Positions 32,868 to 48,781 of a stretch of DNA of 64,000 nucleotides are shown here, piece by piece. The position numbers were made by a program, and so were the translations under genes. Numbering within the stretch: position 1 is the stretch's first letter; the number at the start of each line of letters is the position of its first letter. The stretch spans positions 1 through 64,000 of IMG/VR virus record IMGVR_UViG_3300037471_000902; one strand, 5' to 3'. Source of the DNA: a virus. Under the pieces are notes generated by a model that was given only the letters and a program-made list of their open reading frames with translations, did no database searches and was not told the DNA's origin.

Positions 32868-32877
32868 GGCTTCTCAT

Positions 32878-33000
32878 TGCTTCTGAGGATAATCTGGAGG
32901 TGCCCAGAGGTCCTCAGAAGCACCTATCACAGCTACATGATAGGTACTATATCTCAGCGCACCATCATCTCTGAGCCATAAATAACCTATGGCTCAGAGA
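32878..33000 (+). promoter_or_regulatory. Three tandem hairpins; the third (13-bp perfect) overlaps late promoter TAAATA and sequesters the ATG
   Basis: TGCTTCTGAGGA/TCCTCAGAAGCA; ACCTATCA/TGATAGGT; TCTCTGAGCCATA/TATGGCTCAGAGA. Confidence 0.8.
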
Positions 33001-33447
33001 CATAAATTCAAAATCGTATCCTACATAGTCACCGCACTGACACTGATCATTGCGGCTATTATGTTTTCCGGGTTTGGACTACTAGCTTACTGGAATTTGC
33101 AATCCTCTGATAATGCTTATGTAGTTTTGAATCCCAATAAGCATTACGCTTACCTGTCTTATTACAACTCTATTCGCGTATATCGTGAATTTGAGATAAG
33201 GCGGCCGCTTGAAATCACCATTACTCGAGAGCTTAGACAAATGCGTGATGATGGTGTAGTCGTTCGAATTGAATTGGAATCAACACACGCATTTTATGAT
33301 GCTCCAGGCATTCACAAAGTTGAGCGTGGTGTCAACATTCCGTCCAACATTCAAGGTAAATGGCTTGTGATTGATAAGCTTTGCTGGCATGTTAATCCTA
33401 TTAGGAATGCCTGCGTTGATCTCCCAACTATATCTCTAGACGCATGA
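32989..33447 (+). CDS. Single-TM protein with extracytoplasmic domain (possible lysis component)
   Basis: Basic N-terminus, long hydrophobic helix, C-terminal Cys pair; late promoter. Confidence 0.55.
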   Translation: MAQRHKFKIVSYIVTALTLIIAAIMFSGFGLLAYWNLQSSDNAYVVLNPNKHYAYLSYYNSIRVYREFEIRRPLEITITRELRQMRDDGVVVRIELESTHAFYDAPGIHKVERGVNIPSNIQGKWLVIDKLCWHVNPIRNACVDLPTISLDA

Positions 33448-36400
33448 AACTCCACTCTGCGATTACCCTCAATGAGGGAATTACCCATATCGAGGACCTA
33501 CCCATCGATGATTTTATCAGGACTGTTAGGGACCTGAAAAGCAAGGTCGTTACCGAAAAGATGGATGGAGCGAATCTCTGGTTTGGCGTGGATGAAAATG
33601 GGCTCTTCACTTCACGTGAAGGTAAATCCAAGCGAGCAAAACGCTTCTACAACATCTCTGACTACCCGCTAGTTGCAAACTACAACGGATTCCGGGCAGC
33701 CCATCTTGCACTCAAGAAAGCTGAACATGGGATTGAGAAGATTTTGTCAGATGGTGACATGATCGAAATTGAAGTCATTTTTGGCAGGCAGCCAAACACC
33801 GTGACTTATGGAGCAGAGGACAAGAATTACATCGTCATTTTGAGAGCTGTTGAAGGAACAGATCAAGATAAGGCAGAGCGTCTTTCTAAAGCGCTACATG
33901 GGAAGTCTGTCACTGTCAAACCACAGATAGTGACATCTCCTGATGGAAATAAACTAGAAGTCACCGAACCTACTCAAGTTTGGCAGTTCACTGAAGTCAA
34001 ACCAATTGACACAAAATCGGTTGACACATCTCCAGCCCTTGAAAAATTGAAGGAGATGGAAAATTGGCTGGGAGCTCCAGCTGAGAATGTGCCTAACATG
34101 ACTAACAGGGAAGTCATTGAAGCCAAGCTGGGTAAGATTGACAAATCTCAACGCGATCTAGTCAAGTCAGAGCGTGAGACCCTTAAGCAAAGACTGCTTG
34201 ACAATTTCAAGCTGCCCATTAAAGAGTTTCTGTTAGGCACTCTTGTAAGAAAGATCAAGCCATCACTTCAGGGTGAAGTTCAACCTGATGAAGACGTGGG
34301 GGTTGAAGGCGTTGTTGTGCGTGATACTAACAACGGCGAGATGGTGAAAATTGTTGACAAGGACGTTTTCACAGCCATCAACAAATTCAACAATTCTGTC
34401 CGTGGACAGATCGCTGGATTGGTAAAGACAGATGATCAAGATGCACCAGTTGAAGCGCGAGGTGGTGTTTTCGGTGATGCAAAGATTCGCATAGGCATGC
34501 TTTTTGGGATGAAGGAGCTAGCCCTTTCGTCTAGTGCTCGTAAAATCCTCTCCAAATTCAAGGGTGTTGACGCGGCTGAGACAGCCAAAAACATGGCTGA
34601 CAACATTCAGGTGACTGATTTTGAAGCAATTCGTCACAAGGTTGCTGCAATTTTGAAGTCATCACTGGCAGAAATCGACAATATTCTGGTTCAATTCAAG
34701 GAAAATTCTGGTTCCTATAAATTGAAATTGAAGACAGGGAAAGAAATCGGATTCTCTCCTGATGTCATGAAGAGGAATCTGACGGCATTCGCTGAGACGA
34801 AGGTCGACATCAACAAAATTATCACCGCGGTGTTGAAAGCACGTACCATGCCTGAACTAATCATAGCGCTGTACGGTCGTACTATTCAATCTCTTTTTGA
34901 TACTAATGAGGCAGACAGCGTGAAGGAATCAATCTTCAAACAAATCAACCAAACGCTTAATGCGTTCGATCAACAAAAGCAAATGATGGAAGACGATGTA
35001 GGTGGGGCTCAACCACCTGCAACTGGCGCTGCAGCTATCTCTGGTCCTGACGGTGGACAAGCTCCTGAAAAGAGACTATTTGGTAATCGAGTCGTCGTAA
35101 AGCGTCAGCGCAATTTCAAGCGTAAGCCTCGCTTTGCGCAAGTTACTGAAAGCCTTCTAAAGCTTGTTGAATTTGACGCCGCGGTAGCAAGCGGTCAGTT
35201 TGCAACTGACGTCAATGACACAGTTAACGGCCGAAACGACGTTGAATTCAAAGCACTACGTAATCAAGTGAATGCGCCAGGTGCAAATGGAGCAGCAGTG
35301 TCGCAGACAGACATCTCAAATTATCTTGATAAAGCGCATGAGCTCAACGACGAGGTAGATACTGTCACTTTCGGCATGGAGATGGATGACGGAAGCGTCG
35401 CGAAGGTTTATGTGAATGCGACTCAAGCTGACCAGTTTGAGCAAACGCTGGCTGATATGCTGGGTAAAGAAGATAATTTAGAAAAGGTTATCGATGATCT
35501 AGCTCAGAACTTTGACATTGTTGACGTCGAGTGGCCACAAACAATGGCTCAACCCATGGACAGCACCGATCTGGGAACAGATTCTCAAGGAGATCCTGTA
35601 CTAGATCCCGTAATTGATTTAGGTAATCTAGATGATGAACCACCTGAGGATGATGCTGATGGTGGCCTGCTAAAGGCAATCAACGGCATGAAGAATCCTG
35701 AAGACATCGATTTGGCACCAGGTGCTGAACTTCCACCAGAAGAAACAGGTGAGGGTGTTCCACCAAGCGACGATGAAGACAGCAGTGAAGATCTCGATCT
35801 GATTAAGTCTGTCGCGAATGGTGAAGAGGGAGACGGTGGTACTGATGATACCCAAAACAATGACGTTGGCATTGACACGACCGTATTTGACGATGGAACA
35901 AATGATCAAGGTGATCAGGGTGATGATGATCAAGGTGATGATGATCAAGGTGATGAAGGCGGTTCTGGCGATGATAATTCACCAGCCCCTGAGGATGATG
36001 GATCGGGTGGCGAAGTTCCAGACGTTGATTTGGGTGACGCGGATGATGAGGATTCTGACGATGATTCCAATCAGACATCTGACGAAGATGCTAACGACAC
36101 GGATTCTGACAGCGAAGAAACACCAAAGAAAAAGAAAGCGTCCAAGGATGATGAGGACGAGGACGAATCAACTACTACACAGGAGTCGGCAATGACATTT
36201 GGCCAACAGTTCAAGGATAAGCTTCTTCTAGAAAAGAAAGAAACAAAGAAGTCAAAGAAAAAAATTGAGGTAGATTCTGTCGAGGGAACTTCCGAGTTTC
36301 CGGCTAGTCTCCAAAAGCTGATGCAATTCTTCCCTCAACGTGGTGAGAAAATGATGGTCGCCCTTATGTGGACCCTTGGTGCGCCAATCGAAGCACTCGT

Positions 36401-37358
36401 GATGAAGAAATCAGATCTTCGTGATTCTGTTCAGTCTTCTGGCGATATGTATCAGAAAGACAGCCAATTCCGTCTGTGGGTTAGCCGCGTAATTAACGGC
36501 TTCATTGCAGCTGAGAAGACGCAATCGACCGAAAAGGAAGTCAAAGAGAACAAGCTCGAGGATGAACTAAACAGCGTTTATCAGAAAGTAGTTTTGGAAA
36601 TCCTCGATAGGATTGGTTTGCCATCTTCTATTGAACGCATTGCAAGATTGCAGCTTCGCAACAATGTTCGCGAAAAGGCAGCGCTTATCCAACGCGACAG
36701 CCATCTTCGTGCATATGTAAAAATCCTAGCTGAACTTCTAGGTGTTGATGCAATCACTGGAATGAGAATGGCAGAAGCTATGTCTCCAGGTCTTCCAACA
36801 GATGCAGCGAATGATGATGACACAGCACCTAATCAGCAAGCGCAGCAGGCTCAGCGCACTGACGTTGGCGACACTAGCACGCAAGCATGGGTAGACACTG
36901 TCAAGGAACTTGCCATCGCTCTTGGCATTCCGTCTGATATTGTGAATTACAAGCAGACACAGACTGATATGATGATTAAGAAGCAGCGTCAATCTATCAA
37001 GAACAATGGTGTTGTTCTGCGTCGTGCACAGCAACTGCTCGCTCTTGTAAAGGGCAATGGTGCCGCAGTTAATGAGGCTGTTGAATTTGATCGAGCTGCC
37101 TCTGAAAAAGCTGCAGCACCTGTTGTTTCAGCACTCAAGAAGCAATTTGATGTAGATTATTCAATTAACAAGGATGGCTCTGTCACTGTCGTCGTGAATG
37201 GTGGATCTGTTGCACCACATGATGCAGGCAACAAAAATGTTGCATCTGCCAAAAATGTGTCGGCTGTAATTGACAGATTTTTCAAAGCCTACCGTGAGAA
37301 AGGCGTGACATTCACGCAACCAGTTAGCAACAAATTCACCATCGGAGTCAAGGCGTAA
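33444..37358 (+). CDS. Large probable capsid-internal protein: ligase-fold nucleotidyltransferase domain + acidic linker + helical domains
   Basis: TEKMDG, EGVVVRD, VKIVDK; many L/V/M-x-E sites; Asp/Glu-rich tract. Confidence 0.65.
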   Translation: MKLHSAITLNEGITHIEDLPIDDFIRTVRDLKSKVVTEKMDGANLWFGVDENGLFTSREGKSKRAKRFYNISDYPLVANYNGFRAAHLALKKAEHGIEKILSDGDMIEIEVIFGRQPNTVTYGAEDKNYIVILRAVEGTDQDKAERLSKALHGKSVTVKPQIVTSPDGNKLEVTEPTQVWQFTEVKPIDTKSVDTSPALEKLKEMENWLGAPAENVPNMTNREVIEAKLGKIDKSQRDLVKSERETLKQRLLDNFKLPIKEFLLGTLVRKIKPSLQGEVQPDEDVGVEGVVVRDTNNGEMVKIVDKDVFTAINKFNNSVRGQIAGLVKTDDQDAPVEARGGVFGDAKIRIGMLFGMKELALSSSARKILSKFKGVDAAETAKNMADNIQVTDFEAIRHKVAAILKSSLAEIDNILVQFKENSGSYKLKLKTGKEIGFSPDVMKRNLTAFAETKVDINKIITAVLKARTMPELIIALYGRTIQSLFDTNEADSVKESIFKQINQTLNAFDQQKQMMEDDVGGAQPPATGAAAISGPDGGQAPEKRLFGNRVVVKRQRNFKRKPRFAQVTESLLKLVEFDAAVASGQFATDVNDTVNGRNDVEFKALRNQVNAPGANGAAVSQTDISNYLDKAHELNDEVDTVTFGMEMDDGSVAKVYVNATQADQFEQTLADMLGKEDNLEKVIDDLAQNFDIVDVEWPQTMAQPMDSTDLGTDSQGDPVLDPVIDLGNLDDEPPEDDADGGLLKAINGMKNPEDIDLAPGAELPPEETGEGVPPSDDEDSSEDLDLIKSVANGEEGDGGTDDTQNNDVGIDTTVFDDGTNDQGDQGDDDQGDDDQGDEGGSGDDNSPAPEDDGSGGEVPDVDLGDADDEDSDDDSNQTSDEDANDTDSDSEETPKKKKASKDDEDEDESTTTQESAMTFGQQFKDKLLLEKKETKKSKKKIEVDSVEGTSEFPASLQKLMQFFPQRGEKMMVALMWTLGAPIEALVMKKSDLRDSVQSSGDMYQKDSQFRLWVSRVINGFIAAEKTQSTEKEVKENKLEDELNSVYQKVVLEILDRIGLPSSIERIARLQLRNNVREKAALIQRDSHLRAYVKILAELLGVDAITGMRMAEAMSPGLPTDAANDDDTAPNQQAQQAQRTDVGDTSTQAWVDTVKELAIALGIPSDIVNYKQTQTDMMIKKQRQSIKNNGVVLRRAQQLLALVKGNGAAVNEAVEFDRAASEKAAAPVVSALKKQFDVDYSINKDGSVTVVVNGGSVAPHDAGNKNVASAKNVSAVIDRFFKAYREKGVTFTQPVSNKFTIGVKA
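35903..35957 (+). repeat. In-frame tandem repeat encoding DQGDQGDDDQGDDDQGDE
   Basis: GATGATGATCAAGGT x2 plus flanking partial copies. Confidence 0.75.
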
Positions 37359-38269
37359 TGAACCTGATTCAAGAACTTCTGTCTATTCGTGAGGATTATG
37401 ACAAGCTCTTTGAGCTTGTCCAACTCCCAGCAAATGCTTCGCTTGAGGACCTTACTCGCCGTATGGACGCGTGCAAGCGCGCTTTAAGCCTGTGCGCAAA
37501 ACTTCCTAAGGAAGATAGGAAGAAGTGGCTGTCGCAGACTTTCAAGAACATGAACATTGTTCGCGCAGCGTTGAGGCGTGTTCAGAAAACTACTACTCCA
37601 AGCTCGTCTGGCACAGGTGGTCTTTCCGCAGCTACTGTGCAGCGAACCAACGATCTGTATATCCGTCTACAAAATCTTGAACGACAGATGCGCAGCATGG
37701 CTAGGGAGAGTGGCGTTAGCTTGCGTGAGGACACTGCTGTGAAGCATGAGATTTCGACACGAATTCGCCGCTTCATGCACGAGAACGACATCCACTATCC
37801 AGGCGTTGATTCTCTTGAGGATCTACAGAAGGCTCACGCTCAACAAATCCTTGATAAGGGTGGCTGGAAAGGCGCTGACAGCGAAGAACGTGGCCTTGCG
37901 CACGCAATTGGTATTGCAAATCTTAGCAATGACGAACTAGAAGACATAATCCGCCGCCCACATACCGAAAATGGTCAGTCTGTTTGGGAGTTTCAAGAGA
38001 ATGACATGGCGTTCAGTGGTGGTGACACATTGCATGGACCCACTGTCGGTAATAGAGCGTATGTGATTGCTCGTGAAACTGATGAACACGGAAAACCAGC
38101 TGACGCATATCAAGGTCTTGTGATGGACGTAGATGATGGTCATCAACCAAATGATGACGATGTGATTTGGACAAATGGACCTGATTCGCGTAATGATCTT
38201 GAGGATTGGTGCGATGTCCATGGGCTTCCACACCCCTCTGAAGAAGATTGGGCTAATTTAGGTTTGTGA
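37358..38269 (+). CDS. Probable capsid-internal protein
   Basis: MNLIQELLSIRE N-terminus, internal SLRE. Confidence 0.55.
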   Translation: MNLIQELLSIREDYDKLFELVQLPANASLEDLTRRMDACKRALSLCAKLPKEDRKKWLSQTFKNMNIVRAALRRVQKTTTPSSSGTGGLSAATVQRTNDLYIRLQNLERQMRSMARESGVSLREDTAVKHEISTRIRRFMHENDIHYPGVDSLEDLQKAHAQQILDKGGWKGADSEERGLAHAIGIANLSNDELEDIIRRPHTENGQSVWEFQENDMAFSGGDTLHGPTVGNRAYVIARETDEHGKPADAYQGLVMDVDDGHQPNDDDVIWTNGPDSRNDLEDWCDVHGLPHPSEEDWANLGL

Positions 38270-38679
38270 CAAAGCACCGCATTCCACCAAAACCTACATG
38301 GTTTGACACAGTTCCAGAAGGAACGTGTCGTTGGTGCAATGCGGTTGTCGGTTTGACTAAGACTGGCAGAGTTAGCAAAAGTCGCTGGCATCCAAGCTGT
38401 TTTGAAGAGTACGAATTACTTTTCTGGCCAAGTGCTACACGTAAAGCAGTTTGGAAGCGAGACAAAGGTGTTTGCTTTGAATGCAAGAAGCAGTGCGATA
38501 AGAAGGGTAAGAATGGGTGGGATCTTGACCATAAGGTCCCACTTATTGAGGGCGATGGCAGCCTTTCATTCTGGCAGATGGGAAATTTGCAAACCCTCTG
38601 TCGAGAGTGTCACAAGGCAAAGACAGCAAGAGAAGCAACTGAGCGTGCAGCTCGAAGGAAGCTAAATGAAGCTAAATGA
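38266..38679 (+). CDS. HNH endonuclease
   Basis: RDKGVCFEC, DLDHKVPL, NLQTLCRECHKAKT. Confidence 0.85.
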   Translation: MTKHRIPPKPTWFDTVPEGTCRWCNAVVGLTKTGRVSKSRWHPSCFEEYELLFWPSATRKAVWKRDKGVCFECKKQCDKKGKNGWDLDHKVPLIEGDGSLSFWQMGNLQTLCRECHKAKTAREATERAARRKLNEAK

Positions 38680-39253
38680 AATCATGGACGCATCGAGCGC
38701 TATCGATATTCATCAGGAATTTGCAGTAGTAAAAGCATTCAGGGCAACCATTTTAGGCACTAGTCGCGATTACGCGACATATCCATTGCCAAAGGGAACT
38801 GTAGTTAAGGTGACAAGCATTCATAACGGTTACGTGCGTTTTTCTACAGGTGACGAGTACACGTTAACCATGACAGAAAATGCTTTTAGGAAGCATATGA
38901 TGAAGCGGGCCGAGTATAGTAGGCAGTGGATGAAGGATTTGAATGAGCAACACACATACAAGCCTCAGCAACAGCTCGCTGTCATTGGCGAGTTCAGCGC
39001 CACTCCAATTAAGAACATTTTCAAGAAGTGGCATCCGTCAAATCGACAGAATCCCGGAATCCGAGTTTTCTCAAAGGACACGCATGATTTCCAATGGAAC
39101 ATCATGTTCGTTAAACAGGAAGGAGATAAGGTATACTTTGATTCTGGTACATGGCGATGGATGGCTGACGCAGCACAATTTTACTCATGCACGAAAGACA
39201 TGAAGATGTGGCGTGGTACTAATTTTCTAAATGATTTGAGTGATGAAGAGTGA
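38666..39253 (+). CDS. Two-domain member of the dispersed paralogue family
   Basis: MKLNEI start; the domains end WMKDLNE and FLNDLSDEE. Confidence 0.6.
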   Translation: MKLNEIMDASSAIDIHQEFAVVKAFRATILGTSRDYATYPLPKGTVVKVTSIHNGYVRFSTGDEYTLTMTENAFRKHMMKRAEYSRQWMKDLNEQHTYKPQQQLAVIGEFSATPIKNIFKKWHPSNRQNPGIRVFSKDTHDFQWNIMFVKQEGDKVYFDSGTWRWMADAAQFYSCTKDMKMWRGTNFLNDLSDEE

Positions 39254-39268
39254 GTGCCTAAAATTCTG

Positions 39269-39305
39269 AAAAGGGTGTGCATTAAATAACAAGTACACCT
39301 TTTTT
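39269..39305 (+). terminator. Terminator-like hairpin with late promoter TAAATA (39283-39288) in its loop
   Basis: AAAAGGGTGTGC/GTACACCTTTTT (two G-U pairs), U-rich 3' end. Confidence 0.6.
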
Positions 39306-39309
39306 GTTT

Positions 39310-39978
39310 ATGAAATTCAAATTTGACTATCCTGAGCTAATGACTGAAACAGTCAATGGCATGCGTATCTACATTACACCTCAAGGTGGTGCATATCCCA
39401 GCATCACAACTGTCCTGGGAAAGACAATGCCTGAAGAGAAGGTGAAAGCACTTGCTAATTGGGCAAATGCGATCGGTCAACTGAATGCGAAGAAGAAAAC
39501 CCAGGACGCAGCCGATCGAGGCACTGCAGTGCACACGCTCATTGAGCGATTCTTGAATGGTGAGGAAGAGTTCTCATCAAGTGAATTCTCTGCTGAAGCC
39601 CTCAACATGTTCAATGCGTTGAAGGTCAAGCTAAAAAAGATCGATGAGATTTGGTGCCAGGAAGTAGGCTTGTACTCTGACCTGCTCGCTCTCGCCGGAC
39701 GTGTAGATTGTATTGGTGTCTACAAGGGAGAGGAAGCAATCATTGACTTCAAGACATCTTCTAGGCTAAAGAGTCAGGAAGACATTGAAGATTATCGGTT
39801 TCAACTGTGTGCCTACGCGCTCATGCACAACGAGATGTTTGGCACCAATATCAATAAGGGCGTTATCTTAATGACGTCAGCGGCTGGTTTCCCGCAAGAG
39901 TTCCATGTAGATTTGATGCCTTACGTAGATAGACTATTTGATCGCGTACAAGACTTCTACAAGAAAATGGCACTATGA
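39310..39978 (+). CDS. PD-(D/E)XK exonuclease
   Basis: YPSITTVL, RGTAVH, E..LY, AGRVDC, IIDFKTS, QL.AY. Confidence 0.85.
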   Translation: MKFKFDYPELMTETVNGMRIYITPQGGAYPSITTVLGKTMPEEKVKALANWANAIGQLNAKKKTQDAADRGTAVHTLIERFLNGEEEFSSSEFSAEALNMFNALKVKLKKIDEIWCQEVGLYSDLLALAGRVDCIGVYKGEEAIIDFKTSSRLKSQEDIEDYRFQLCAYALMHNEMFGTNINKGVILMTSAAGFPQEFHVDLMPYVDRLFDRVQDFYKKMAL

Positions 39979-40467
39979 ATGAAACAAGTCGCCCAGCTAC
40001 ATGGGGATTTCACGCTTGTTTATGCTGACATAAATGGAGTTGAATCCTACGGATTAATGGAAAATGACAAGCTTGTCGCCTTTTGCAAGGTTGAACCTAC
40101 AACAGTTTGTGGCGTAGATTACAAGAAGCTTATTGTCCTATTCACACTATCTAGTTCTCGTGGACTTGGATACTCTCTAATCTTGCTCTATGGCATGAAA
40201 GAGAGCAATATCACACCAATACTGGTTGATGATGCAATCTTTGACGGTGGTTGGGCAGTCATTAAAAAATTAGCACAAAACAAGGCTAATCTATCTGTCA
40301 AGAAGCTTGACAAAAACACTGGCAACGTTTCTGATTTTGATGATTCAAATCCACGTCGAAATCACGCGTTCATTTTAGAAAATGATGGGATTGGCTTCTA
40401 CACCGACTATACTAAATATGGAATGGGTAAAGCCTATTACTATCTTTTTGACGGTGAACTACTATAG
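39979..40467 (+). CDS. Hypothetical protein, possible GNAT fold
   Basis: SRGLGYS resembles GNAT motif A. Confidence 0.4.
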   Translation: MKQVAQLHGDFTLVYADINGVESYGLMENDKLVAFCKVEPTTVCGVDYKKLIVLFTLSSSRGLGYSLILLYGMKESNITPILVDDAIFDGGWAVIKKLAQNKANLSVKKLDKNTGNVSDFDDSNPRRNHAFILENDGIGFYTDYTKYGMGKAYYYLFDGELL

Positions 40468-40491
40468 ATTTGAAGAGTATAAAATACTAAC

Positions 40492-40842
40492 ATGAAAGTC
40501 AACCAGCTACTTCACGACTCTCCTCTAAAAGGTGAGAAGCGTATTGCACTCAACATGCTTGACATTACGAGCGATTTCGTTTTTGCCCGAGTCGAGGGAA
40601 TTAACATAAGAGGCAACTGGATTGGCGCTAGAATTCCAGAAGGCACCCTCATTGAAGTGACTGGCGAAAGAGAAGACGAGATGGGCGAACCAGTTGTGGT
40701 CTTCTCAATTGTTCATGGTGCCGCTGACGAGGAGTATTGCGTCCATGTCAATGATTTTGATGATCGCTTTGTGAAAATTGAAGAACTAGAAGAAAAGAAG
40801 CGCGAACGCAAGTTGAAGTGGTTCAATGATTTGCAGGACTAA
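40492..40842 (+). CDS. Member of the dispersed paralogue family
   Basis: IPEGTLIEV..VVF..F..WFNDLQD. Confidence 0.6.
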   Translation: MKVNQLLHDSPLKGEKRIALNMLDITSDFVFARVEGINIRGNWIGARIPEGTLIEVTGEREDEMGEPVVVFSIVHGAADEEYCVHVNDFDDRFVKIEELEEKKRERKLKWFNDLQD

Positions 40843-41381: not shown

Positions 41382-41407
41382 ACGCATATTTTATCACTTT
41401 GATTCCA

Positions 41408-41436
41408 GTTTAATTTCAGCGCCATGAAGTTACAAT
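41408..41436 (+). promoter_or_regulatory. Early promoter GTTTA-N18-TACAAT, divergent from an extended -10 (TGATAAAAT, - strand 41388-41396)
   Basis: Consensus match. Confidence 0.6.
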
Positions 41437-41547
41437 ATAAGGATTACGGGTAAAAACCATGATAACACTAGAAGATCTCAAGGGTGCATTCATGATCTGC
41501 TTGCAGCAGTACGCGCTCGTGGACCAGCAAGTTTTAAGGAATAAAAA

Positions 41548-41769
41548 ATGCCTAACTATACTCGCACTGTTTCTGTCAAGATCTCGTCTGAAGAACTCAC
41601 AGACATTCTGAAACAACATCTGAAGATCCCAGCGGATGCAAAGGTGACCTTCACTACTCGTGAAGTCAGCACTGACTATTTTGGTCGGGACTCACGAACA
41701 GTTTTTGATGGTGTTCGGATTGAATACGAGGAAAAACCCGTCGCAGAAAAATTTGAAAGGGGGTTCTAA
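41548..41769 (+). CDS. Hypothetical protein
   Basis: AAGGA SD. Confidence 0.6.
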   Translation: MPNYTRTVSVKISSEELTDILKQHLKIPADAKVTFTTREVSTDYFGRDSRTVFDGVRIEYEEKPVAEKFERGF

Positions 41770-41853
41770 TGGCTTGGCAAACAATGAAGACTGCCAAACG
41801 TGAAATTCTACGAATCGCGTTTTTGCAAAACTAATTTATAACGGGAGAAAATA

Positions 41854-41916
41854 ATGGGACTTTGGGCACTACCACTCTTTTTCAGCATCATGTTTCGAGT
41901 TTGGTTTGGACTATGA
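41854..41916 (+). CDS. 20-aa hydrophobic micropeptide MGLWALPLFFSIMFRVWFGL (not in ORF track)
   Basis: GGAG SD; ATGA overlap with the next ORF. Confidence 0.55.
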   Translation: MGLWALPLFFSIMFRVWFGL

Positions 41917-42092
41917 GCCGAAACGATATCACAGGCGACTCACTCGTCAGCAAAACCGCAAACCAAGCCTATCGCGACGGCTGGGATCGTATCTTCGGCA
42001 AGAAGAAAGAAGAGAAGAAGCAGGCACCAGAAGTTGGTGAAGAGGGTTACTCCGAGTATATTACTCGGATCATGGCGCAGAAAAAGCCATGA
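41913..42092 (+). CDS. Hypothetical protein
   Basis: NDITGD.L.SK...AYRDGWDRIFGKK; start reassigned. Confidence 0.6.
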   Translation: MSRNDITGDSLVSKTANQAYRDGWDRIFGKKKEEKKQAPEVGEEGYSEYITRIMAQKKP

Positions 42093-42138
42093 ACTAATGC
42101 GCCATCAGAAGCGCATAAGTACAATAAAGGAGACATCA

Positions 42139-42906
42139 ATGCAACTGCGAACAGCAGATATCAGGAAGACTTTTGTTCGTCTTCTTGCAGAAGAAAAATT
42201 CACACAAATTAATCGTGAATCCAGCATGACTGGGCTGGTTGGTAATACAACCATCGAAATCCTTGGTGCTAACTTCATTGCAGACGAGGACAGCATCTTT
42301 GGTGAAGTGAATTGGGATTACGTTAAGCGCGAAGAAGAGTGGTATAACTCCCAGTCATTGAACGTGAATGACATCCCTGGTGGTGCCCCAGCAATTTGGA
42401 AAGCCGTGGCAGACAAGGACGGCTTTATCAACAGTAATTACGGCCACTTGATCTATTCTCCAGAGAATGGCTTTAAAAAGCCGGCCGCATCAGGTTCGTC
42501 CATGCGTGAGGCTGAAACTGATGGATGGATGTCTCAGTACAAGTGTACACTTCAAGAACTAACGCAGAGCCCCTCTTCTCGTCGTGCTTGCATGATCTAC
42601 ACTCGCCCGCAGATCTGGCTGGACTATAACAAGAATGGTAGATCTGACTTCATTTGTACCAATGTGGTTCAATATCTGATTCGTGATGGCAAAGTCCATG
42701 CTGTTGTTCAAATGCGAAGCAATGACGCTGTGTTCGGATACAAAAACGACAAAGTGTGGCAGCAGCATGTTCTTGAGAAGCTGACATCTGATTTGAATGC
42801 GGCTGGAAATAACTACGAAGTTGGTGATTTGATTTGGAACGTAGGCAGTCTTCATGTTTATGCAAGACACTACAACCTTGTTGACCCCGTCAAGTACGCA
42901 AAATGA
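42139..42906 (+). CDS. 42: dCMP hydroxymethylase (T4 gp42-like)
   Basis: INSNYG, SRRA.MIYTRP, DFICTN.VQYLIRD, MRSND.VFG..ND (dCMP-specifying Asp), SLHVY.RH; AAGGAG SD before 42139. Confidence 0.9.
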   Translation: MQLRTADIRKTFVRLLAEEKFTQINRESSMTGLVGNTTIEILGANFIADEDSIFGEVNWDYVKREEEWYNSQSLNVNDIPGGAPAIWKAVADKDGFINSNYGHLIYSPENGFKKPAASGSSMREAETDGWMSQYKCTLQELTQSPSSRRACMIYTRPQIWLDYNKNGRSDFICTNVVQYLIRDGKVHAVVQMRSNDAVFGYKNDKVWQQHVLEKLTSDLNAAGNNYEVGDLIWNVGSLHVYARHYNLVDPVKYAK

Positions 42907-43124
42907 AACTGAGCTTCTACATTAGTGGACAAGCCGGATACGCGTTCTGTGATTCAGTGGAACTGGATTCTCGCATTCCAGTTCCACGAATTGGAGAGAA
43001 GGTTCTTCTAAAATGTGCTGATGAATACTATCGCCAGCACATCGTGACGGACATTGTCCACTCCTACTGTACTGAAACGATTTTCATCTACGTCCTTCCA
43101 CCCTCAAACGAAACAGATATATGA
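42903..43124 (+). CDS. Hypothetical protein
   Basis: ATGA-coupled; PVPRIGEKV. Confidence 0.55.
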   Translation: MKLSFYISGQAGYAFCDSVELDSRIPVPRIGEKVLLKCADEYYRQHIVTDIVHSYCTETIFIYVLPPSNETDI

Positions 43125-43546
43125 GCCTTCTTTCTGAAATCAAAACTCTGCAGCTTACGGCTAGAAAAAATCGTGATGCTATTGCCTCAGCACTTCTGAC
43201 AACACTGCTTGGCGAAGCCAGCATGCCCGGCAAGAATGATGGAAATCGTGAATCGACAGACATGGAAGTTGTTGCGGTTATCAAGAAGTTTGTGAAGAAC
43301 ACGCAAGAAATGATCCGACTTGCTGACAACGAAACCTCTCGAAAGGAGCTCTCTATTTTGGAAAGTTTCCTGCCGAAGCAGTTGACTGAGGATGAACTTC
43401 GCCGGGCGTTTAGCGAAATCATTGAAAACAACGTCGTCAAGAATATGGGCGCATATATGAACACGCTCAAAACATTCTATCCAGGGATGTATGATGGTGC
43501 GACAGCTAGTCGCATTTTGAAGGAACTTCTTGGTATGCAGAAGTGA
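43121..43546 (+). CDS. GatB/YqeY domain protein
   Basis: IKKF.K, E..ILE.FLPKQLTEDEL, MG..M..LK. Confidence 0.75.
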   Translation: MSLLSEIKTLQLTARKNRDAIASALLTTLLGEASMPGKNDGNRESTDMEVVAVIKKFVKNTQEMIRLADNETSRKELSILESFLPKQLTEDELRRAFSEIIENNVVKNMGAYMNTLKTFYPGMYDGATASRILKELLGMQK

Positions 43547-43734
43547 TTCAATACGTTCTCCGTTTTAAGGACAACACATACCACTCGTGTGTCGGTATTG
43601 GAAGTTCTACTGAGGAGAAGGGCATGGCAAAGCGTTATCAATCAATTAAGGAAGCTCAAGACGATGCTAATTTCCTAGTTGATGTTGACGCTATTGTCAT
43701 GGCTAATTCTGAACAAATCGTGAAACGATATTGA
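43543..43734 (+). CDS. Hypothetical protein
   Basis: GTGA-coupled ORF. Confidence 0.5.
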   Translation: MIQYVLRFKDNTYHSCVGIGSSTEEKGMAKRYQSIKEAQDDANFLVDVDAIVMANSEQIVKRY

Positions 43735-43739
43735 TCACG

Positions 43740-43769
43740 GTTTTACTGCAGTGTCTCTCGAGCTATAAT
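43740..43769 (+). promoter_or_regulatory. Early promoter GTTTT-N19-TATAAT
   Basis: Consensus match. Confidence 0.75.
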
Positions 43770-43777
43770 AAGAAGAA

Positions 43778-45505
43778 ATGAAATATGAACAACAAATTCT
43801 CGAGTCCTTCCAGCGACTCAAGTTCACTCCTCGAGCTGGACAAGCAGCAGCTGTAAATCAAGTTCTTTCAGCTTTCCTTGATGAAGGAAAGCGAAATGTT
43901 ATTCTGAACGCATCAACTGGAACTGGTAAGTCCATCATTGGTGCAGTCACTGCTGAAACGCTTTCCTCTATCCGTGGTGGAGGCTCCTTTAGGCCCAAAT
44001 CCAGCATTAGCCTCACTGCTACAAACGTTCTCGCCAAGCAATATGAGAATACTTTTGAGCAGTTGCTGGAGGATCGTCGCTTCATCATGATCAAGGGTGC
44101 GAACAATTATGATTGTTCTGCTCTGACCACGGATGAAAAATTGGAAAAAGCAGATGCATGTGCGTGGTTTACCATGGTGCAGAATGCATCTGAATTCCAG
44201 CAGACGCTTGACAATCACTGCGAGAAATGCGATTACCTTAGCATAAAGAAAGCAAGGAATCATGTTCGTCACCTCACGACGAACTATTCCTTCTACTTCA
44301 TCGATCGCATGTACACTGGCAAGTTCGAAGACAGAGACTTGATTGTGTGGGATGAGGCACACCTTGTCAATGACCTGTTTAGTGAGCACAATGCAATCTA
44401 TTTCTCGCAGAAGATCATGCAGCGAACAGCTCAGGATATTGCTGACACAATTCAGCTGACTGATTTGGAAATTGCCAAGAAGATCAAGCGCGTTGGTGAT
44501 GATTGCGCCAAGAAAGATAAAATCAACGATAGCAACTACAAAGCGTATCTCCATGCGTTGATTGACATCTACAAGTACGCAAAGGAACGCGGAGTAATTC
44601 GTCAAGAGAAAGCATTGCGCTCTGGTAAGATGAGCGAATACAGCAAATTGACGCGCTTCGTGAAGGAATACGAGGGCAAGCTCTGCAAGATTGACGATCT
44701 CTTCAAGTACGAATATGATCACGTATTCGAATACAAGGAAGACGAGAGCGCAGTATCAGTGAAGCCAATCTTCGTTGGCAACATGATGGAAGCTCTTGAA
44801 GCTGCTGACTTTAACCTCTTCATGTCTGCCACGATTAGTGATGAGTTCATGACAACAACGATGAAGCTTGATCCTGAAAAGACCAAGTTCATTAAGTTAC
44901 CGCCAACGTTCCCAAAAGAAAATAAGGAAATTGTTTTCTTCGATCCTATGTCGTTGAACTTCACGTCATTGAAGGATCCCCAGACTGTGGTGAGACTGAG
45001 GAAGAACGTCGCAAAGATTGTCAAGCACCATATCGAGGATGGAGAGCGAGGCATTATTCTCACACCCTCGTTCAAGTTGACGCAGGAAATTTCTGCTGAA
45101 ATTAGCAAAATCAGTGGATACAAACTGTTTGAACACAAGCAGGGTGAGAAGCTGGAAAATGTCTTGCATGCGTTCAAGAATTATAAGGGTGTTGCTATCC
45201 TTATGTCGCCATCCATGTTTGAAGGTGTTGACCTTCCTGGCGACCAGTCTAGATTCCAGATCGTTGTAAAGGCGCCATTCCCCTCGCTAGGTGACAAGCG
45301 AATGAAATTCATTCTAGATCATCACCAGTCTCTCTACAACACTATCACTATCATGAAATTGGTCCAAGGAGCAGGTCGATCTGTTCGTTCCATGGACGAC
45401 CATGCGGTGACTTATGTCTTGGACGCAAATGGAAAAAGGCTGTTTACGTCCAAACAGAACATCTGGCTTGACGAATTCAATGTTAGATTCACCAACATGC
45501 TGTAA
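43778..45505 (+). CDS. DinG/XPD-like SF2 helicase
   Basis: PRAGQ, ASTGTGKS, Cys cluster, DEAH, MSAT, EGVDLPGD, QGAGRSVR. Confidence 0.88.
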   Translation: MKYEQQILESFQRLKFTPRAGQAAAVNQVLSAFLDEGKRNVILNASTGTGKSIIGAVTAETLSSIRGGGSFRPKSSISLTATNVLAKQYENTFEQLLEDRRFIMIKGANNYDCSALTTDEKLEKADACAWFTMVQNASEFQQTLDNHCEKCDYLSIKKARNHVRHLTTNYSFYFIDRMYTGKFEDRDLIVWDEAHLVNDLFSEHNAIYFSQKIMQRTAQDIADTIQLTDLEIAKKIKRVGDDCAKKDKINDSNYKAYLHALIDIYKYAKERGVIRQEKALRSGKMSEYSKLTRFVKEYEGKLCKIDDLFKYEYDHVFEYKEDESAVSVKPIFVGNMMEALEAADFNLFMSATISDEFMTTTMKLDPEKTKFIKLPPTFPKENKEIVFFDPMSLNFTSLKDPQTVVRLRKNVAKIVKHHIEDGERGIILTPSFKLTQEISAEISKISGYKLFEHKQGEKLENVLHAFKNYKGVAILMSPSMFEGVDLPGDQSRFQIVVKAPFPSLGDKRMKFILDHHQSLYNTITIMKLVQGAGRSVRSMDDHAVTYVLDANGKRLFTSKQNIWLDEFNVRFTNML

Positions 45506-45511
45506 ATCAAA

Positions 45512-45763
45512 ATGAAGATTGAAATCAGTATTGGCAACAATCGTCCTGTTGACGCCATCAATACAATCCTAGACACCCCAATCATGAAAATCAATCCTGC
45601 GGTGTCTAAGTATTTGGAGGATTGGATTGAGAATGATGAAGAAAGAGAATATACATTTCGTGAATTCCTTTCAGCGATAGACAGTGCATTTGACAGATCA
45701 GAATGCTTCTGCATTGTGATGGAAACACTGCTAGATGAGGTGATGAAAAGTGAATCTAATTGA
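45512..45763 (+). CDS. Hypothetical protein
   Basis: Packed ORF. Confidence 0.5.
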   Translation: MKIEISIGNNRPVDAINTILDTPIMKINPAVSKYLEDWIENDEEREYTFREFLSAIDSAFDRSECFCIVMETLLDEVMKSESN

Positions 45764-45776
45764 GTCCGGAGGACGA

Positions 45777-46289
45777 ATGAGCGAAGAATTGAAGCCGTGC
45801 CCGTTCTGCGGGAGCGCCCCAAGGCTCCTGCGGTTGGTGGAGGCATACCAGGATGCCGATGGACAGCATGCGGGCGAATACGACGCATGGTTCAACGTGC
45901 AATGCGACAACTGCGGCATTGAGCAGGGCGATGAATACCGATCCAGTGCAATTGCAGCATGGAACAAGCGCGCCTCGCGTGACGCGGAGGTGCAGAGGCT
46001 GCAAAGCCCTTCGTACATGCGACACCAGCCCATAAGCAACTGCGAGTGCGCCGACTGCATCCGATTCTTCCAGCTTGCAGCAATCAGGGGCGACGCTATT
46101 CAGCACGATTTGCTCAAGCTTTCCCAAGAGGTTGAAACTTTGAAAAAGAATCTGAAGGATTGGGAAGATAATGCCAAATATCTCCTTGACTCAACACCTG
46201 GTGCTATTCGCTCATGCTACAAGGGACTCGACGAAAATCTGCTCGAGTCCCTCTGCATTACCTACATCAAGTTACGCGGTCAATCTTGA
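45777..46289 (+). CDS. Lar-family restriction-alleviation-like protein
   Basis: ELKPCPFCG, V.C..CG, AIAAWNKR; GGAGG SD before 45777. Confidence 0.7.
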   Translation: MSEELKPCPFCGSAPRLLRLVEAYQDADGQHAGEYDAWFNVQCDNCGIEQGDEYRSSAIAAWNKRASRDAEVQRLQSPSYMRHQPISNCECADCIRFFQLAAIRGDAIQHDLLKLSQEVETLKKNLKDWEDNAKYLLDSTPGAIRSCYKGLDENLLESLCITYIKLRGQS

Positions 46290-47866
46290 TCGAATTTGAC
46301 CTTATCAGGGGTGCCGGCTTTGCGTTCACCAACATAGATAAAAATGCAGAGCATGTCCAAAAAGTCCTTGAGCGGTTCATGGTGTTCGCGGCTAATGTAA
46401 CTCCGCTTTTCACCAGTGATTTTTGTTCTTAGACTGGCACCAAAGGTCTTACGATCTACATACTGTCCATTGACATAGTCGGTTGTTTTAACACTGTTCG
46501 GTTTTATTTCCACTTTAATGTGGTATGGACTCGAGGCTGCAATTTCTTGGATTGCAGCCTCGATTTTCTTTGCGATGGACGGCATCTTTTTATTCCATTC
46601 AGCAATGTCCTTTGCTACAATCGCCATGAACTTTCTAATTTTCTCTTTGGCGTGTTCTTTTTGATTGACAATGAGGTCATCCTTTTGTTTCCGCAAATTG
46701 TTGGCAAAGTCATCCTGTACGTCATCATCATACAAACCAAGCATTAGATCGATCTTTCTAGTGTCAGGTGCTCTCTGCGATATGAGATTGCGAAGTTGCG
46801 CGGTCTCATTAAAAACTGGTGGGTAGATTATTAGTGGATTAACTTTTTCTGGTTTAAACCAGCCAGTGCCATCACCATTATGACGGTAGAGCCCAGTTTT
46901 AGCAGCATTTGTACTAAAGCCCTCATGTTCATGGGGTTTGCTGCGGGCGAGGGCATGATACTGTGGTCCAAATTTTAGCTTCTCGTGTAGGATCTCCATA
47001 ATATCAGACATGATCTCATCACGGCCTTTGGCAGCTTGGACCTCACCATCAAAGATGAAAGTTACCTTATTGCTATCACTCCTGTTAAGGAATTTATCAA
47101 GATTGAACGTCTTGATGTCATCAAATCCATAAAGATTGCTTGCGCCAGGACCGTCAATCCACCCTATTAGATGGAATCCTGATTCCTCAGCCTTGGCTAA
47201 CCATTTCTCAATAGTTTCCTTCTGAAATTGTTTGACTAATTCTCTGTGACTGTCATCTGTCTTAACGCTTGGTTTTTTAAATGACCTAGTCTTAGGGTCA
47301 TACTGTTCCTGAAATTTGAATGGACTCACCTCAATCGTGACGCTCTTAATCTTCCTTTTCTCTAAACCATAGGCTGTCTTCTTGGCATTAGGAGGAGACT
47401 TCATCGAGCTATTGACTGATCCGATTTCAAGAAAGTCCGTCAATTTATCTTTTCTATTTGCTGGTTTTGACGGATCATCTGGCATTCTTGATTGATAGGA
47501 GTTAGCAATCTCCTTGAATGCGCGTGCAAGAACAGAAGATGGGGTTCCTGTTCCAGCTGTTGCTTCGGTCAGATCATCAAGAAACTTCTTATCATAGTCT
47601 TTCTTCAGCACCGTATCTCTGTTAATGTAGTAACGATACGCCCAGAATAGTTCGGGACTGTCTTTCTTTTGGAAGAGAATCTTATCATATCCAGGCATTT
47701 CGCCTGGCACGATTGAATGAACAGTAAGTTCAGTGCCAGGAAAAACATATGTGCCATCCGTTTCACCATGAAAGGAAAGCGCGTAAAAGTTCTCTTCTGT
47801 CGAGATTAGTTTTGTACCCGGTTCTAGGTCTAGATACGCTTCAGAAATAAATTGCTTGAATCTCAT
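46280..47866 (-). CDS. Probable capsid-internal protein; N-terminal domain belongs to the paralogue family
   Basis: MRFKQFISE start; FPGTELTV..FLDDLTE. Confidence 0.65.
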   Translation of the reverse strand: MRFKQFISEAYLDLEPGTKLISTEENFYALSFHGETDGTYVFPGTELTVHSIVPGEMPGYDKILFQKKDSPELFWAYRYYINRDTVLKKDYDKKFLDDLTEATAGTGTPSSVLARAFKEIANSYQSRMPDDPSKPANRKDKLTDFLEIGSVNSSMKSPPNAKKTAYGLEKRKIKSVTIEVSPFKFQEQYDPKTRSFKKPSVKTDDSHRELVKQFQKETIEKWLAKAEESGFHLIGWIDGPGASNLYGFDDIKTFNLDKFLNRSDSNKVTFIFDGEVQAAKGRDEIMSDIMEILHEKLKFGPQYHALARSKPHEHEGFSTNAAKTGLYRHNGDGTGWFKPEKVNPLIIYPPVFNETAQLRNLISQRAPDTRKIDLMLGLYDDDVQDDFANNLRKQKDDLIVNQKEHAKEKIRKFMAIVAKDIAEWNKKMPSIAKKIEAAIQEIAASSPYHIKVEIKPNSVKTTDYVNGQYVDRKTFGASLRTKITGEKRSYISREHHEPLKDFLDMLCIFIYVGERKAGTPDKVKFDQD

Positions 47867-48744
47867 TTCAGTTCTTCTGGAATTGGAAGCTTGGCTTCTT
47901 TGAGTGATTTTATTGCATCAGCAAAAATCTCTTGAGCATCTTTTCTAGCCCTAATTTGCTTGATGACGTCTTCGGCAGTCATGATGTCTTTTGCTGATAC
48001 ATTCTGTCCAAATAGGAATTTGGCAACAGTATCTGGATCAGTGATGATATCTGGATTTGGGTCAAACTTAATATTCTTTCCAGAGATAGCCTGGGCGTGC
48101 ATGGCTAATTGGCCTGGATCCATCTTATTCATCGTCTTTCCAAACGTCTTTGTTTCCTTGTCATATTTTGCGGCTTTAAACAGCCGCTCTACGCCAGTGT
48201 CTAATTTGATAGCTCTTGACGCACGAGCTACGACTTCACCCTTATACTTCATGATGAAATCTTTTCCACCTTCATGAGTATGGCGCATCGCTGCCATGAG
48301 AAGGAAGTTTCTAACTACGCCTGGATACTTAGACTTGTCACCTTCGGAAGAATAGTAGATGAACTTTGCCCATGTTTTGTCATTCACAAACATTAAGTCA
48401 ACCTGAACTTTCTTTCCGCCCACATCTACTGCGTATGAGCCGATTTTTGTTCCCTTGTTGAACGTGCCCTCATTGTTTACCAATTCCATCATTTTCAAAT
48501 TGGCTTGTTCGCTAGACATCTCATCATTTCCTATGACGATGTCAATGTCACCGCTATCATTCTTTTTACCCGCAAGAGTGAGGTGAACCGTTCCAAGAGT
48601 GCGGTTCTTGATATCGGGCAAATTGAGAGTTCGACCCACGATGTCAAGGGCTTTCTCAATGTCTTCTTTCGTTGCTCGCTGAGTGTTGAACTTCTCAGTT
48701 GCAGCACCGCCCTCAGCAAGAAATTGTTTGAATGTTGTGACCAT
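47863..48744 (-). CDS. Pol-beta-superfamily nucleotidyltransferase with capsid-targeting-like N-terminus
   Basis: TFKQFLAE start; LGT..SGDIDIVI and VQVDLM catalytic aspartates. Confidence 0.7.
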   Translation of the reverse strand: MVTTFKQFLAEGGAATEKFNTQRATKEDIEKALDIVGRTLNLPDIKNRTLGTVHLTLAGKKNDSGDIDIVIGNDEMSSEQANLKMMELVNNEGTFNKGTKIGSYAVDVGGKKVQVDLMFVNDKTWAKFIYYSSEGDKSKYPGVVRNFLLMAAMRHTHEGGKDFIMKYKGEVVARASRAIKLDTGVERLFKAAKYDKETKTFGKTMNKMDPGQLAMHAQAISGKNIKFDPNPDIITDPDTVAKFLFGQNVSAKDIMTAEDVIKQIRARKDAQEIFADAIKSLKEAKLPIPEELK

Positions 48745-48768: not shown

Positions 48769-48781
48769 TATTTACTAAATA
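48769..48781. promoter_or_regulatory. Back-to-back late promoters TATTTA-C-TAAATA
   Basis: Palindromic pair between divergent genes. Confidence 0.7.

Follow-up and report, generated by a model that had tools for sequence, protein, structure and literature searches.

Capsid-targeting-like leaders on nucleotidyl-transfer enzymes of an uncultured jumbo phage

Leader peptides at the locus

A 64,000-nucleotide stretch of virus DNA (the window; bases 1-64000 of a single 111,857-bp contig, IMG/VR record IMGVR_UViG_3300037471_000902, completeness estimate 31%) encodes two nucleotidyl-transfer enzymes, a ligase-fold protein on the plus strand and a nucleotidyltransferase (NTase) of the Pol beta superfamily on the minus strand, both of which begin with a short peptide that resembles, loosely in the first and closely in the second, the capsid-targeting sequence (CTS) of phage T4. 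The contig carries a split family-B DNA polymerase whose top match is that of the Ralstonia jumbo phage RsoM2USA (47% identity), followed in rank by XacN1, SCTP-2 and PA5oct-like phages, along with genes for DnaB, a primase, a thymidylate-synthase-like protein, giant tail fibres and a T4-like baseplate. Judged by this gene content, the contig is a piece of an uncultured jumbo phage of about 350 kb from the T4 superclade, and RsoM2USA is, by the same comparisons, the nearest cultured relative found. A megablast of the 33-49 kb region against 50,697 phage records gave no match, PHROGs held no family for any of nine proteins, and Pfam held no significant family for the 293-, 303-, 195- or 528-amino-acid (aa) proteins.

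An initial annotation had read five N-termini in the window as capsid-targeting-like leaders, and all five are indeed encoded there, with a strength that differs by class; as a whole, the observation proved stronger than first described. The enzymes and leaders on which the argument turns are as follows.

33444..37358, plus strand: 1304-aa protein; residues 12-350 form a ligase-fold adenylyltransferase domain, and the remainder includes a helical region, an extended acidic tract of low complexity and a C-terminal part whose fold is unknown
33444..33476, plus strand: leader MKLHSAITLNE of the ligase-fold protein, hydrophobic and ending L-N-E; predicted cut after Glu11, giving the mature start GITHIEDL
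33444..34493, plus strand: RNA-ligase-type nucleotidyltransferase domain, modelled by AlphaFold2 (AF2) with a predicted local distance difference test score (pLDDT) of 91.9
37358, plus strand: Alt-type leader MNLIQELLSIRE of a 303-aa protein, resembling MELITELFDE of T4 Alt
46280..47866, minus strand: 528-aa orphan protein, a putative cargo, translationally coupled to the NTase gene by an ATGA overlap
47840..47866, minus strand: strict internal-protein-type leader MRFKQFISE of the 528-aa protein; predicted cut after Glu9
47863..48744, minus strand: 293-aa family-X-like (Pol beta superfamily) NTase with an internal-protein-type leader (AF2, VIA and Foldseek)
48712..48744, minus strand: strict internal-protein-type leader MVTTFKQFLAE of the NTase; predicted cut after Glu11, with a mature protein beginning GG
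contig 70176-70625 and 98649-99236, minus strand: the other two strict-motif proteins, outside the window, found by the six-frame motif search

The strict form of the leader, FK[QE]F[LI]xE, has four occurrences in a six-frame translation of the entire contig, all of them at residues 3-5 of a minus-strand open reading frame (ORF), and is found at 4 of 122 N-termini versus 0 of 572 internal methionines (Fisher p=9e-4). Paralogy as the cause of these shared N-termini is ruled out by an all-versus-all BLASTP within the contig, in which the leader proteins are unrelated outside the leader, and a mobile DNA cassette is likewise ruled out, as the DNA 5' of the four strict leaders is dissimilar. Since the four proteins are not paralogous and their upstream DNA is unrelated, it is the peptide itself that is conserved.

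In the T4 record, the internal proteins IPIII and IPII begin MKTYQEFIAE, IPI begins MKTFKEF and Alt begins MELITELFDE. The T4 CTS consists of the first 10 residues of IPIII and is sufficient for targeting; targeting depends on residues 4 and 7 and processing on residues 8 and 10, and the gp21 protease cuts after L/I-x-E (PMC9026906). The strict leaders of the window keep the T4 spacing, aromatic-x-x-Phe-Leu/Ile-x-Glu. The L/I-x-E endings of the window leaders are L-A-E, I-S-E, L-N-E and I-R-E, and the T4-like form as a whole is found in MVTTFKQFLAE and MRFKQFISE, loosely in the leaders at 33444 and 37358, and not in that at 38666. The leader MNLIQELLSIRE also resembles MQLLRELHAINE, MELLRELHSLIE and MLIKELTAIIE, all of which occur in the head module of a related genome, G002. 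The fifth N-terminus, MKLNEI (38666), fits the broad class M-[KRN]-hydrophobic-x-[EQDN]-hydrophobic and nothing stricter, a class chosen post hoc that is present at 12 of 122 N-termini and 2 of 572 internal methionines; as a specific leader MKLNEI is unsupported.

Leader-like starts were also observed elsewhere. At least seven small late proteins at contig 68939-105133, beyond the window, combine such starts with a shared internal acidic motif, (D/S/N)-L-(Y/H/S/V)-D-(G/D)-(D/P/N)-(D/E), as in DLYDGDDAED and DLHDDPDVQD, which could be a second shared tag. A 165-aa protein at window 4553-5050 (plus strand) begins with the broad-class leader MKLTELQE and matches Pfam Acb1, an anti-CBASS 2H phosphoesterase, at E 2e-29.

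Leader-bearing proteins in virions and in related phages

Purified virions of RsoM2USA were analyzed by sodium dodecyl sulfate-polyacrylamide gel electrophoresis and liquid chromatography-tandem mass spectrometry, which assigned ten bands to ORFs 38, 86, 89, 132, 257, 356, 359, 361, 383 (the major capsid protein) and 438, the last of which is listed at 309479-311161 in the supplementary table (PMC8504454). ORF438 is the homologue of the ligase-fold domain in the window (tblastn, 37.5% identity over 350 aa), and its N-terminus reads ...MLTFKQYAQPILTE followed by GISHLEDL. Two more of the ten bands carry the leader, as ORF89 begins MKTFKQFLSE and ORF132 begins MKTFKQFL. Searched as a DNA pattern, T-F-K-[QE]-[FY]-hydrophobic occurs six times in the 343.8-kb RsoM2USA genome, six of six at ORF N-termini; together with ORF438, whose MLTFKQYA start escapes the pattern, this makes seven leader genes, three of which are among the ten bands drawn from 486 ORFs (hypergeometric P = 2e-4). 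In the paper, ORF438 is listed at 51.69 kDa versus the 62.4 kDa computed for the full ORF (PMC8504454), a difference that may reflect processing. These virion proteins are termed unknown or uncharacterised there, and the sections consulted do not mention the leader (PMC8504454).

The leader recurs in five NTase-encoding relatives of 310-368 kb, of which four are estimated to be complete and one to be 87% complete, and three have terminal repeats. In these genomes, 15 of 15 occurrences of the motif lie at or next to ORF starts, 14 of them with a Met 1-3 residues upstream and the fifteenth with an implied GTG or TTG start. Their cargo is mutually unrelated and includes a P-loop kinase of the AAA_33/Zeta-toxin type and a second small NTase-like protein. 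A Peptidase_S77 protease, the type of T4 gp21, scores above the Pfam cut-off in 5/5 of these relatives. In G002, most leader genes lie at 77-98 kb, beside the protease (105 kb) and putative portal, scaffold and capsid genes.

In the Agrobacterium phage Atu_ph07 and the Sinorhizobium phage Phosso, genes for the ligase-fold protein and the NTase are adjacent and lie downstream of the replicative helicase, and both are leaderless. Their NTase homologues begin M-GG, i.e., with the residues that follow the predicted cut, and their ligase-fold homologues begin MKH(L/I)xDL, at the conserved core. Taken at the level of sequence, the leader is a detachable module, with the window lineage having apparently added leaders to two pre-existing enzymes and also moved the NTase beside tail-fibre genes. 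On the minus strand at contig 98649-105133, three leader genes (342, 295 and 195 aa) are inserted among apparent gp27-, gp5-, gp25- and gp6-type baseplate genes, and the same baseplate genes are contiguous in G002 (121588-129413); from this arrangement, the cargo genes look like morons dropped into late operons.

The nucleotidyltransferase

The protein at 47863..48744 had been described as a Pol-beta NTase, and a high-confidence model, fold searches and intact active-site residues confirm it. The AF2 model reaches a pLDDT of 92.3, with residues 1-7 below 50, indicating a disordered leader. In Foldseek, all of the top 50 matches belong to family X (E 1.5e-4), and in VIA the palm plus thumb of Pol beta (142-335), TdT, Pol lambda and Pol X of African swine fever virus (ASFV) align over 156-175 residues at Z 9.0-9.5, ASFV Pol X being among the best structural matches (Z 9.0). 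Terminal uridylyltransferases (TUTases) match in the palm only, at Z ~8, so that the margin over other NTases is small. Across 30 diverse homologues, G51, D66, D68 and D116 are invariant, leaving the GS/DxD/D triad intact. Over the same number of homologues, 45-74% identical, the leader is conserved as M-x-x-F-K-x-F-L-x-E-G-G, with F5 and E11 invariant and L9 retained in at least 90%. At E <= 0.001 the family numbers more than 240 homologues, and several of these are on contigs of 330-368 kb.

Membership in a Pfam profile (DNA_pol_B_palm and others) stayed below threshold for the NTase family, with a best E of 0.03 and 14.5 bits versus a cut-off of 25 in 6 of 30 members. No 8-kDa lyase or fingers domain was seen in the NTase, and RlaP was absent among the 25 Pfam families most frequently matched by 30 members at E<=5, a search in which HMMER filters may hide weak matches. 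PDB sequence searches, with single sequences and with profiles, returned nothing meaningful. On the strength of the model, the NTase is best described as a new family of the Pol-beta superfamily that is most like minimal Pol X and is not a Pol X orthologue.

The ligase-fold protein

The ligase fold attributed to the product of 33444..37358 is similarly upheld by a high-confidence model, by fold searches and by intact catalytic motifs. Residues 1-9 of the model fall below pLDDT 50, again indicating a disordered leader. The best VIA scores of the domain are with RNA ligases (REL1, Z 10.3; NgrRnl, 10.2; Trl1, 9.8; T4 Rnl2, 9.4; T4 Rnl1, 8.8; 176-217 residues), DNA ligases scoring ~6-8 and capping enzymes ~5.5-7, and the top 43 matches are all folds of the ligase/capping-enzyme superfamily, including the homologous cap-binding domain of snurportin. 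K39, D41, G42, E110, E288, G289 and K302 are invariant in 55 sequences, so that motifs I (KxDG), III, IV and V are intact. The match to PF09414 (RNA_ligase) is at 19.1-22.7 bits for the window protein, below the gathering cut-off of 27, and is weak in 28 of 55 family members (best E 5e-7); a profile search of the family against PDB sequences gave no match.

For residues 1-350, a set of 1.8 billion representatives contains 405 relatives, with lengths that range roughly from 320 to 1400 aa and cluster at ~450-520, 720-820 and 950-1400 aa. The extension that precedes GIxHIEDL in this family measures 5-35 aa and ends with Glu at P1 in 67 of 110 representatives and with Leu or Ile at P3 in 68 of 110. 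Its opening is T4-like in 21 representatives, having the pattern aromatic-x-x-aromatic; examples are MKTFKQFI and MKSSFKEFL.

Two canonical, leaderless RNA ligases are encoded side by side at window 1124-2257 and 2257-3360 (plus strand), one of Rnl1 type (PF09511, E 2e-23) and the other consisting of an OB-fold plus an Rnl2-type domain (PF21189 and PF09414, E ~1e-24 to 1e-28). A canonical DNA ligase is present in 5/5 complete relatives, which rules out the ligase-fold protein as the only DNA ligase of the phage. With separate Rnl1- and Rnl2-type ligases, and a DNA ligase in relatives, the ligase-fold protein is an extra enzyme, encoded by a third ligase-fold gene. Within its ORF, an acidic tract of ~250 residues rich in D, E and G (window 35400-36200, plus strand) lies between the N-terminal part, which is conserved, and a C-terminal region for which conservation does not extend to G002.

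Late-promoter-like motifs

The initial annotation had placed both the ligase-fold block and the minus-strand pair downstream of TAAATA late promoters. TAAATA is a real signal and stands 30 nt before the NTase gene, but its spacing before the block at 33444 is atypical. Two features are relevant here.

48769..48774, minus strand: late-promoter-like TAAATA, 30 nt ahead of the NTase start codon
32968..33000, plus strand: perfect 13-bp hairpin over the start codon (ATG) of gene 32989, its arm and loop containing cATAAATA

The hexamer is depleted overall, with 36 copies where a rough estimate from base composition predicts ~87, and 23 of the 36 lie within 80 nt upstream of a start on the same strand, 13 of these 23 at 27-36 nt. 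The genes so preceded include tail-fibre and other late genes as well as the NTase. Of 21 related loci, 14 carry an ATAAATA 15-60 nt ahead of the NTase orthologue. The window shows no enrichment of the T4 late promoter in its exact form, TATAAATA (1 copy vs 0.6 expected), making the shorter TAAATA the informative motif.

Upstream of the ligase-fold gene, terminator-like hairpins accompany promoter-like sites in relatives. In G002, a GC-rich hairpin is followed by TATAAATA 31 nt before the ATG. In RsoM2USA (MG752970.1 309479-311161; locus L056 5971-7653), a hairpin is followed by AATAAATA, which stands 12 nt before the annotated ORF438 ATG and 33 nt before the Met of MLTFKQY; by this reading of the sequence, the annotated start is probably 7 codons too early. 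In the window itself, three consecutive stem-loops follow a 102-aa gene at 32870-33010 (plus strand; minimum free energy -60.3 kcal/mol, z = -8.1), the third being the 13-bp stem. The hairpin at 32968-33000 resembles a T4 device that confines translation to late transcripts. As far as sequence can indicate, the arrangement before the ligase-fold block is consistent with late transcription, with unusual spacing.

Neighbouring genes and the 528-residue protein

The ligase-fold gene is flanked by the following plus-strand genes.

32989..33447, plus strand: predicted membrane protein of 152 aa, encoded after the promoter-like site and before the ligase-fold gene, which its gene overlaps at ATGA
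37358..38269, plus strand: 303-aa protein with the leader MNLIQELLSIRE, its start overlapping the ligase-fold stop codon
38666..39253, plus strand: 195-aa protein with the start MKLNEI, a weak, broad-class leader

The 152-aa membrane protein has no Pfam or PHROG match. The N-terminal ~100 aa of the 303-aa protein are related to proteins of G002 and of a further genome, G003 (E 7e-7 and 3e-5), and its counterpart in G002 belongs to the head module, where it is ~8 kb away from the gene for the prohead protease and has neighbours on either side that begin MQLLRELHAINE and MELLRELHSLIE. A pattern search of viral contigs found no relatives of the 303- and 195-aa proteins, and the 195-aa protein also has none in the five complete relatives. 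Interleaved with the leader genes downstream of the ligase-fold gene are an HNH endonuclease (window 38266-38679, plus strand, E 2.5e-8) and a PD-(D/E)XK nuclease (39304-39978, plus strand, E 9e-11).

Among 5.8 billion proteins, none of similar length is homologous to the 528-aa protein, and no useful lead came from the ESM Atlas (pLDDT of its own model, 0.49). A second site-like element within it, KKFLDDLTE, ends at residue 101. A metagenomic protein of 339 aa (P0033) consists of the leader MIRFKQFLLE, a module of ~85 aa like the N-terminus of the 528-aa protein, KKFLDGLME and then an NTase, a layout that hints at a polyprotein-like cargo with internal cleavage sites and that could alternatively be a frameshift artefact. 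The proteins at 38666-39253 and 40492-40842 and the N-terminus of that at 46280-47866 seem, from their sequences, to share a small beta-rich segment after the leader, P-x-G-T-x-hydrophobic-x-V, with a similarity too weak for BLAST. Within the 3' end of the 528-aa gene, a strong terminator-like hairpin on the plus strand (window 46531-46563; 15-bp stem, then a T-run) is probably the terminator of the convergent plus-strand operon that ends at 46289. Next to the minus-strand cargo pair, a plus-strand gene encodes a 179-aa protein (window 45750-46289) with a Lar restriction-alleviation domain (E 1e-11).

Proposed packaging and its alternatives

Taken together, we put the probability at about 0.6 that this jumbo phage uses a T4-type internal-protein system to load the NTase, the 528-aa protein, the ligase-fold protein and probably the 303-aa protein into its head. 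The initial annotation had inferred that such proteins are made late, bear leaders and are packed into the head, and this core is backed by the match to the T4 leader, the leaderless homologues, the protease of relatives, the (T)ATAAATA motif conserved before both genes in relatives and the RsoM2USA virions; MKLNEI is not among the supported leaders. Packaging of the leader-bearing enzymes is likely, and cleavage and injection would follow by the precedent of T4.

The proposed leader, M-x(1-3)-F-K-Q/E-F-L/I-x-E, of ~10 residues and with Alt-like variants, would be homologous to the T4 CTS and, as in T4, would bind the protein to the scaffolding core of the prohead. A gp21-type protease would then cut after the Glu of L/I-x-E, setting the mature protein free in the capsid, from which it would exit with the DNA at the next infection. 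The mature forms of both the NTase and the ligase-fold protein are predicted to start at Gly12. A ligase and a Pol X-like enzyme form a classic fill-and-seal pair. By this analogy, the packaged enzymes would most likely heal nucleic-acid ends, by filling or tailing, and then seal them by ligation, ahead of phage gene expression; the incoming genome and cleaved host or phage RNA are both reasonable substrates. The ligase could be packaged pre-adenylylated, in which case no ATP would be needed for one turnover. That the injected proteins amount to a ready-to-use end-repair kit, with a pre-adenylylated ligase-fold enzyme, a Pol X-like NTase and, in relatives, a P-loop kinase, acting on breaks in the incoming genome or in RNAs cut by host defence nucleases before phage expression, is a tentative proposal that we hold to be possible and, on balance, doubtful. 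The other functions suggested in the initial annotation, NMPylation of proteins and interference with nucleotide signalling, found no specific support.

Several observations weigh against packaging of these enzymes. The leader of the ligase-fold protein is not of the strict FKQF type, and its L-x-E-G could partly belong to the conserved domain. The PA5oct homologue of this protein (28% identical), which begins MNIAEIQKHK with no Glu at P1, is not flagged in its record as detected by electrospray-ionization tandem mass spectrometry, and its neighbours are so flagged. No NTase homologue is detectable in RsoM2USA, so that this phage offers no experimental proxy for the NTase. The 111.9-kb contig, ~31% of the genome, holds no major capsid protein, prohead protease or rest of a head module. 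The TAAATA before the 33444 block stands 10 nt from the ATG of the upstream gene 32989, not at ~30 nt. The ligase-fold gene is found just downstream of dnaB in Atu_ph07, Phosso, G002 and the window, and this synteny, with the adjacent leaderless genes of the first two, indicates that the ancestral role was probably intracellular. Conserved as it is across four distant phages, the same gene order is one of the arguments, beside the adjacent leaderless pair, the unflagged PA5oct homologue and the RNA-ligase-associated Pol-beta NTases described in jumbo phages (PMC7824862), for regarding the ligase-fold protein and the NTase as ordinary intracellular enzymes of replication or RNA repair, a ligase acting with its associated Pol-beta NTase as proposed for RlaP, that stay behind in the infected cell and have an N-terminal motif that serves some other end, such as translation efficiency, partner binding or turnover. 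Such a role does not readily account for the same leader on unrelated proteins and at N-termini only, for its match to an experimentally defined T4 targeting sequence, for the abundance of the RsoM2USA homologue in virions, or for late-promoter-like motifs at both genes in relatives; moreover, canonical RNA ligases, and a DNA ligase in relatives, exist separately. We regard a purely intracellular role as unlikely.

It is also conceivable that the leaders of the NTase and the 528-aa protein alone are true and that the plus-strand starts (MKLHSAITLNE, MNLIQELLSIRE and MKLNEI) are generic amphipathic N-termini that make up no coherent kit, given that none of the three matches FK[QE]F[LI]xE, that the broad pattern was defined post hoc, that no relatives of the 195-aa protein were found and that the promoter spacing before the plus-strand block is atypical. 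The 21 ligase-fold representatives with T4-like aromatic starts in the same position, the predominance of Glu at P1 and Leu or Ile at P3, the presence of ORF438 in virions and the relatives of the 303-aa protein in the G002 head module with Alt-like leaders all speak against this, making it quite improbable. If the ligase-fold protein is packaged, it might serve mainly as a structural or DNA-associated internal protein (in the core, an inner body or DNA-end binding) rather than as a catalytic repair enzyme, which would suit both the place of its homologue among the ten most abundant RsoM2USA virion bands and its long acidic and helical C-terminal extensions of variable length; as the catalytic motifs are invariant in 55 diverse members, arguing for retained nucleotidyl-transfer chemistry, we give this only a slim chance.

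Comparison with known systems

The T4 proteins IPI, IPII and IPIII resemble the proteins described here in having a leader of 9-11 residues in the same register, M-x-T-(F/Y)-(K/Q)-(Q/E)-F-(L/I)-x-E, on unrelated cargo, in the gp21-type protease (found in relatives) and in a T4-late-like promoter motif upstream. In contrast to the small, basic T4 proteins, the putative cargo here consists of enzymes and large multidomain proteins (a Pol X-like NTase, an RNA-ligase-fold protein and, in relatives, a P-loop kinase), and T4 is itself distant from this ~350-kb jumbo phage. T4 Alt is the closer parallel as a head-carried enzyme that is delivered with the DNA, and its start MELITELFDE is like MNLIQELLSIRE and like ligase-fold family leaders such as MELIKSFILQE; Alt, however, is an ADP-ribosyltransferase with a different catalytic fold, and no ADP-ribosyltransferase domain was identified in the window.

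RNA-ligase-associated Pol-beta NTases of jumbo phages have been described as acting in RNA repair (Burroughs and Aravind; Iyer et al. 2021, PMC7824862). These pairs of RNA ligase and RlaP recall the adjacent ligase-superfamily and Pol-beta NTase genes of Atu_ph07 and Phosso, but RlaP is absent from the 25 Pfam families that the NTase family matches most often, its nearest folds are family-X polymerases, and the window genes are ~10 kb apart on opposite strands, both with leaders. The ASFV virion carries Pol X (O174L) and a DNA ligase (NP419L), proposed to repair viral DNA before replication (PMC12172490), and is thus alike in having a minimal family-X polymerase and a ligase inside the particle. 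ASFV is nevertheless a eukaryotic virus with another packaging mechanism, and the relation is limited to fold, an analogy and not homology. The jumbo phages phiKZ and SPN3US likewise pack many head proteins that are cut after Glu by a gp21-like protease (PMC9026906), but with an S/A-x-E cleavage motif, without a T4-type N-terminal leader and in another lineage. A full-text literature search on the capsid-targeting sequence in jumbo phages returned work of the phiKZ/SPN3US type and unrelated papers only.

Significance

The T4 CTS is the classic route by which phage proteins reach the next host, and its known natural cargo comprises small anti-restriction proteins and Alt. While this mechanism is known, its reach into the present clade and its use for enzymatic cargo appear to be undescribed. 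The same tag is seen on diverse enzymes across a widespread, mostly uncultured clade of jumbo phages, indicating nucleic-acid repair enzymes as a new class of cargo, and three abundant, unexplained virion proteins of RsoM2USA bear it, apparently unremarked so far. This would provide a simple rule, based on sequence, by which injected effectors could be predicted from jumbo-phage metagenomes, and a targeting tag that functions in jumbo capsids could serve to bring foreign proteins into large phage heads. If the proposal is true, it would be the first instance of a bacteriophage head bringing repair enzymes into a cell, and bacterial viruses would have a counterpart to the Pol X and ligase that ASFV packages.

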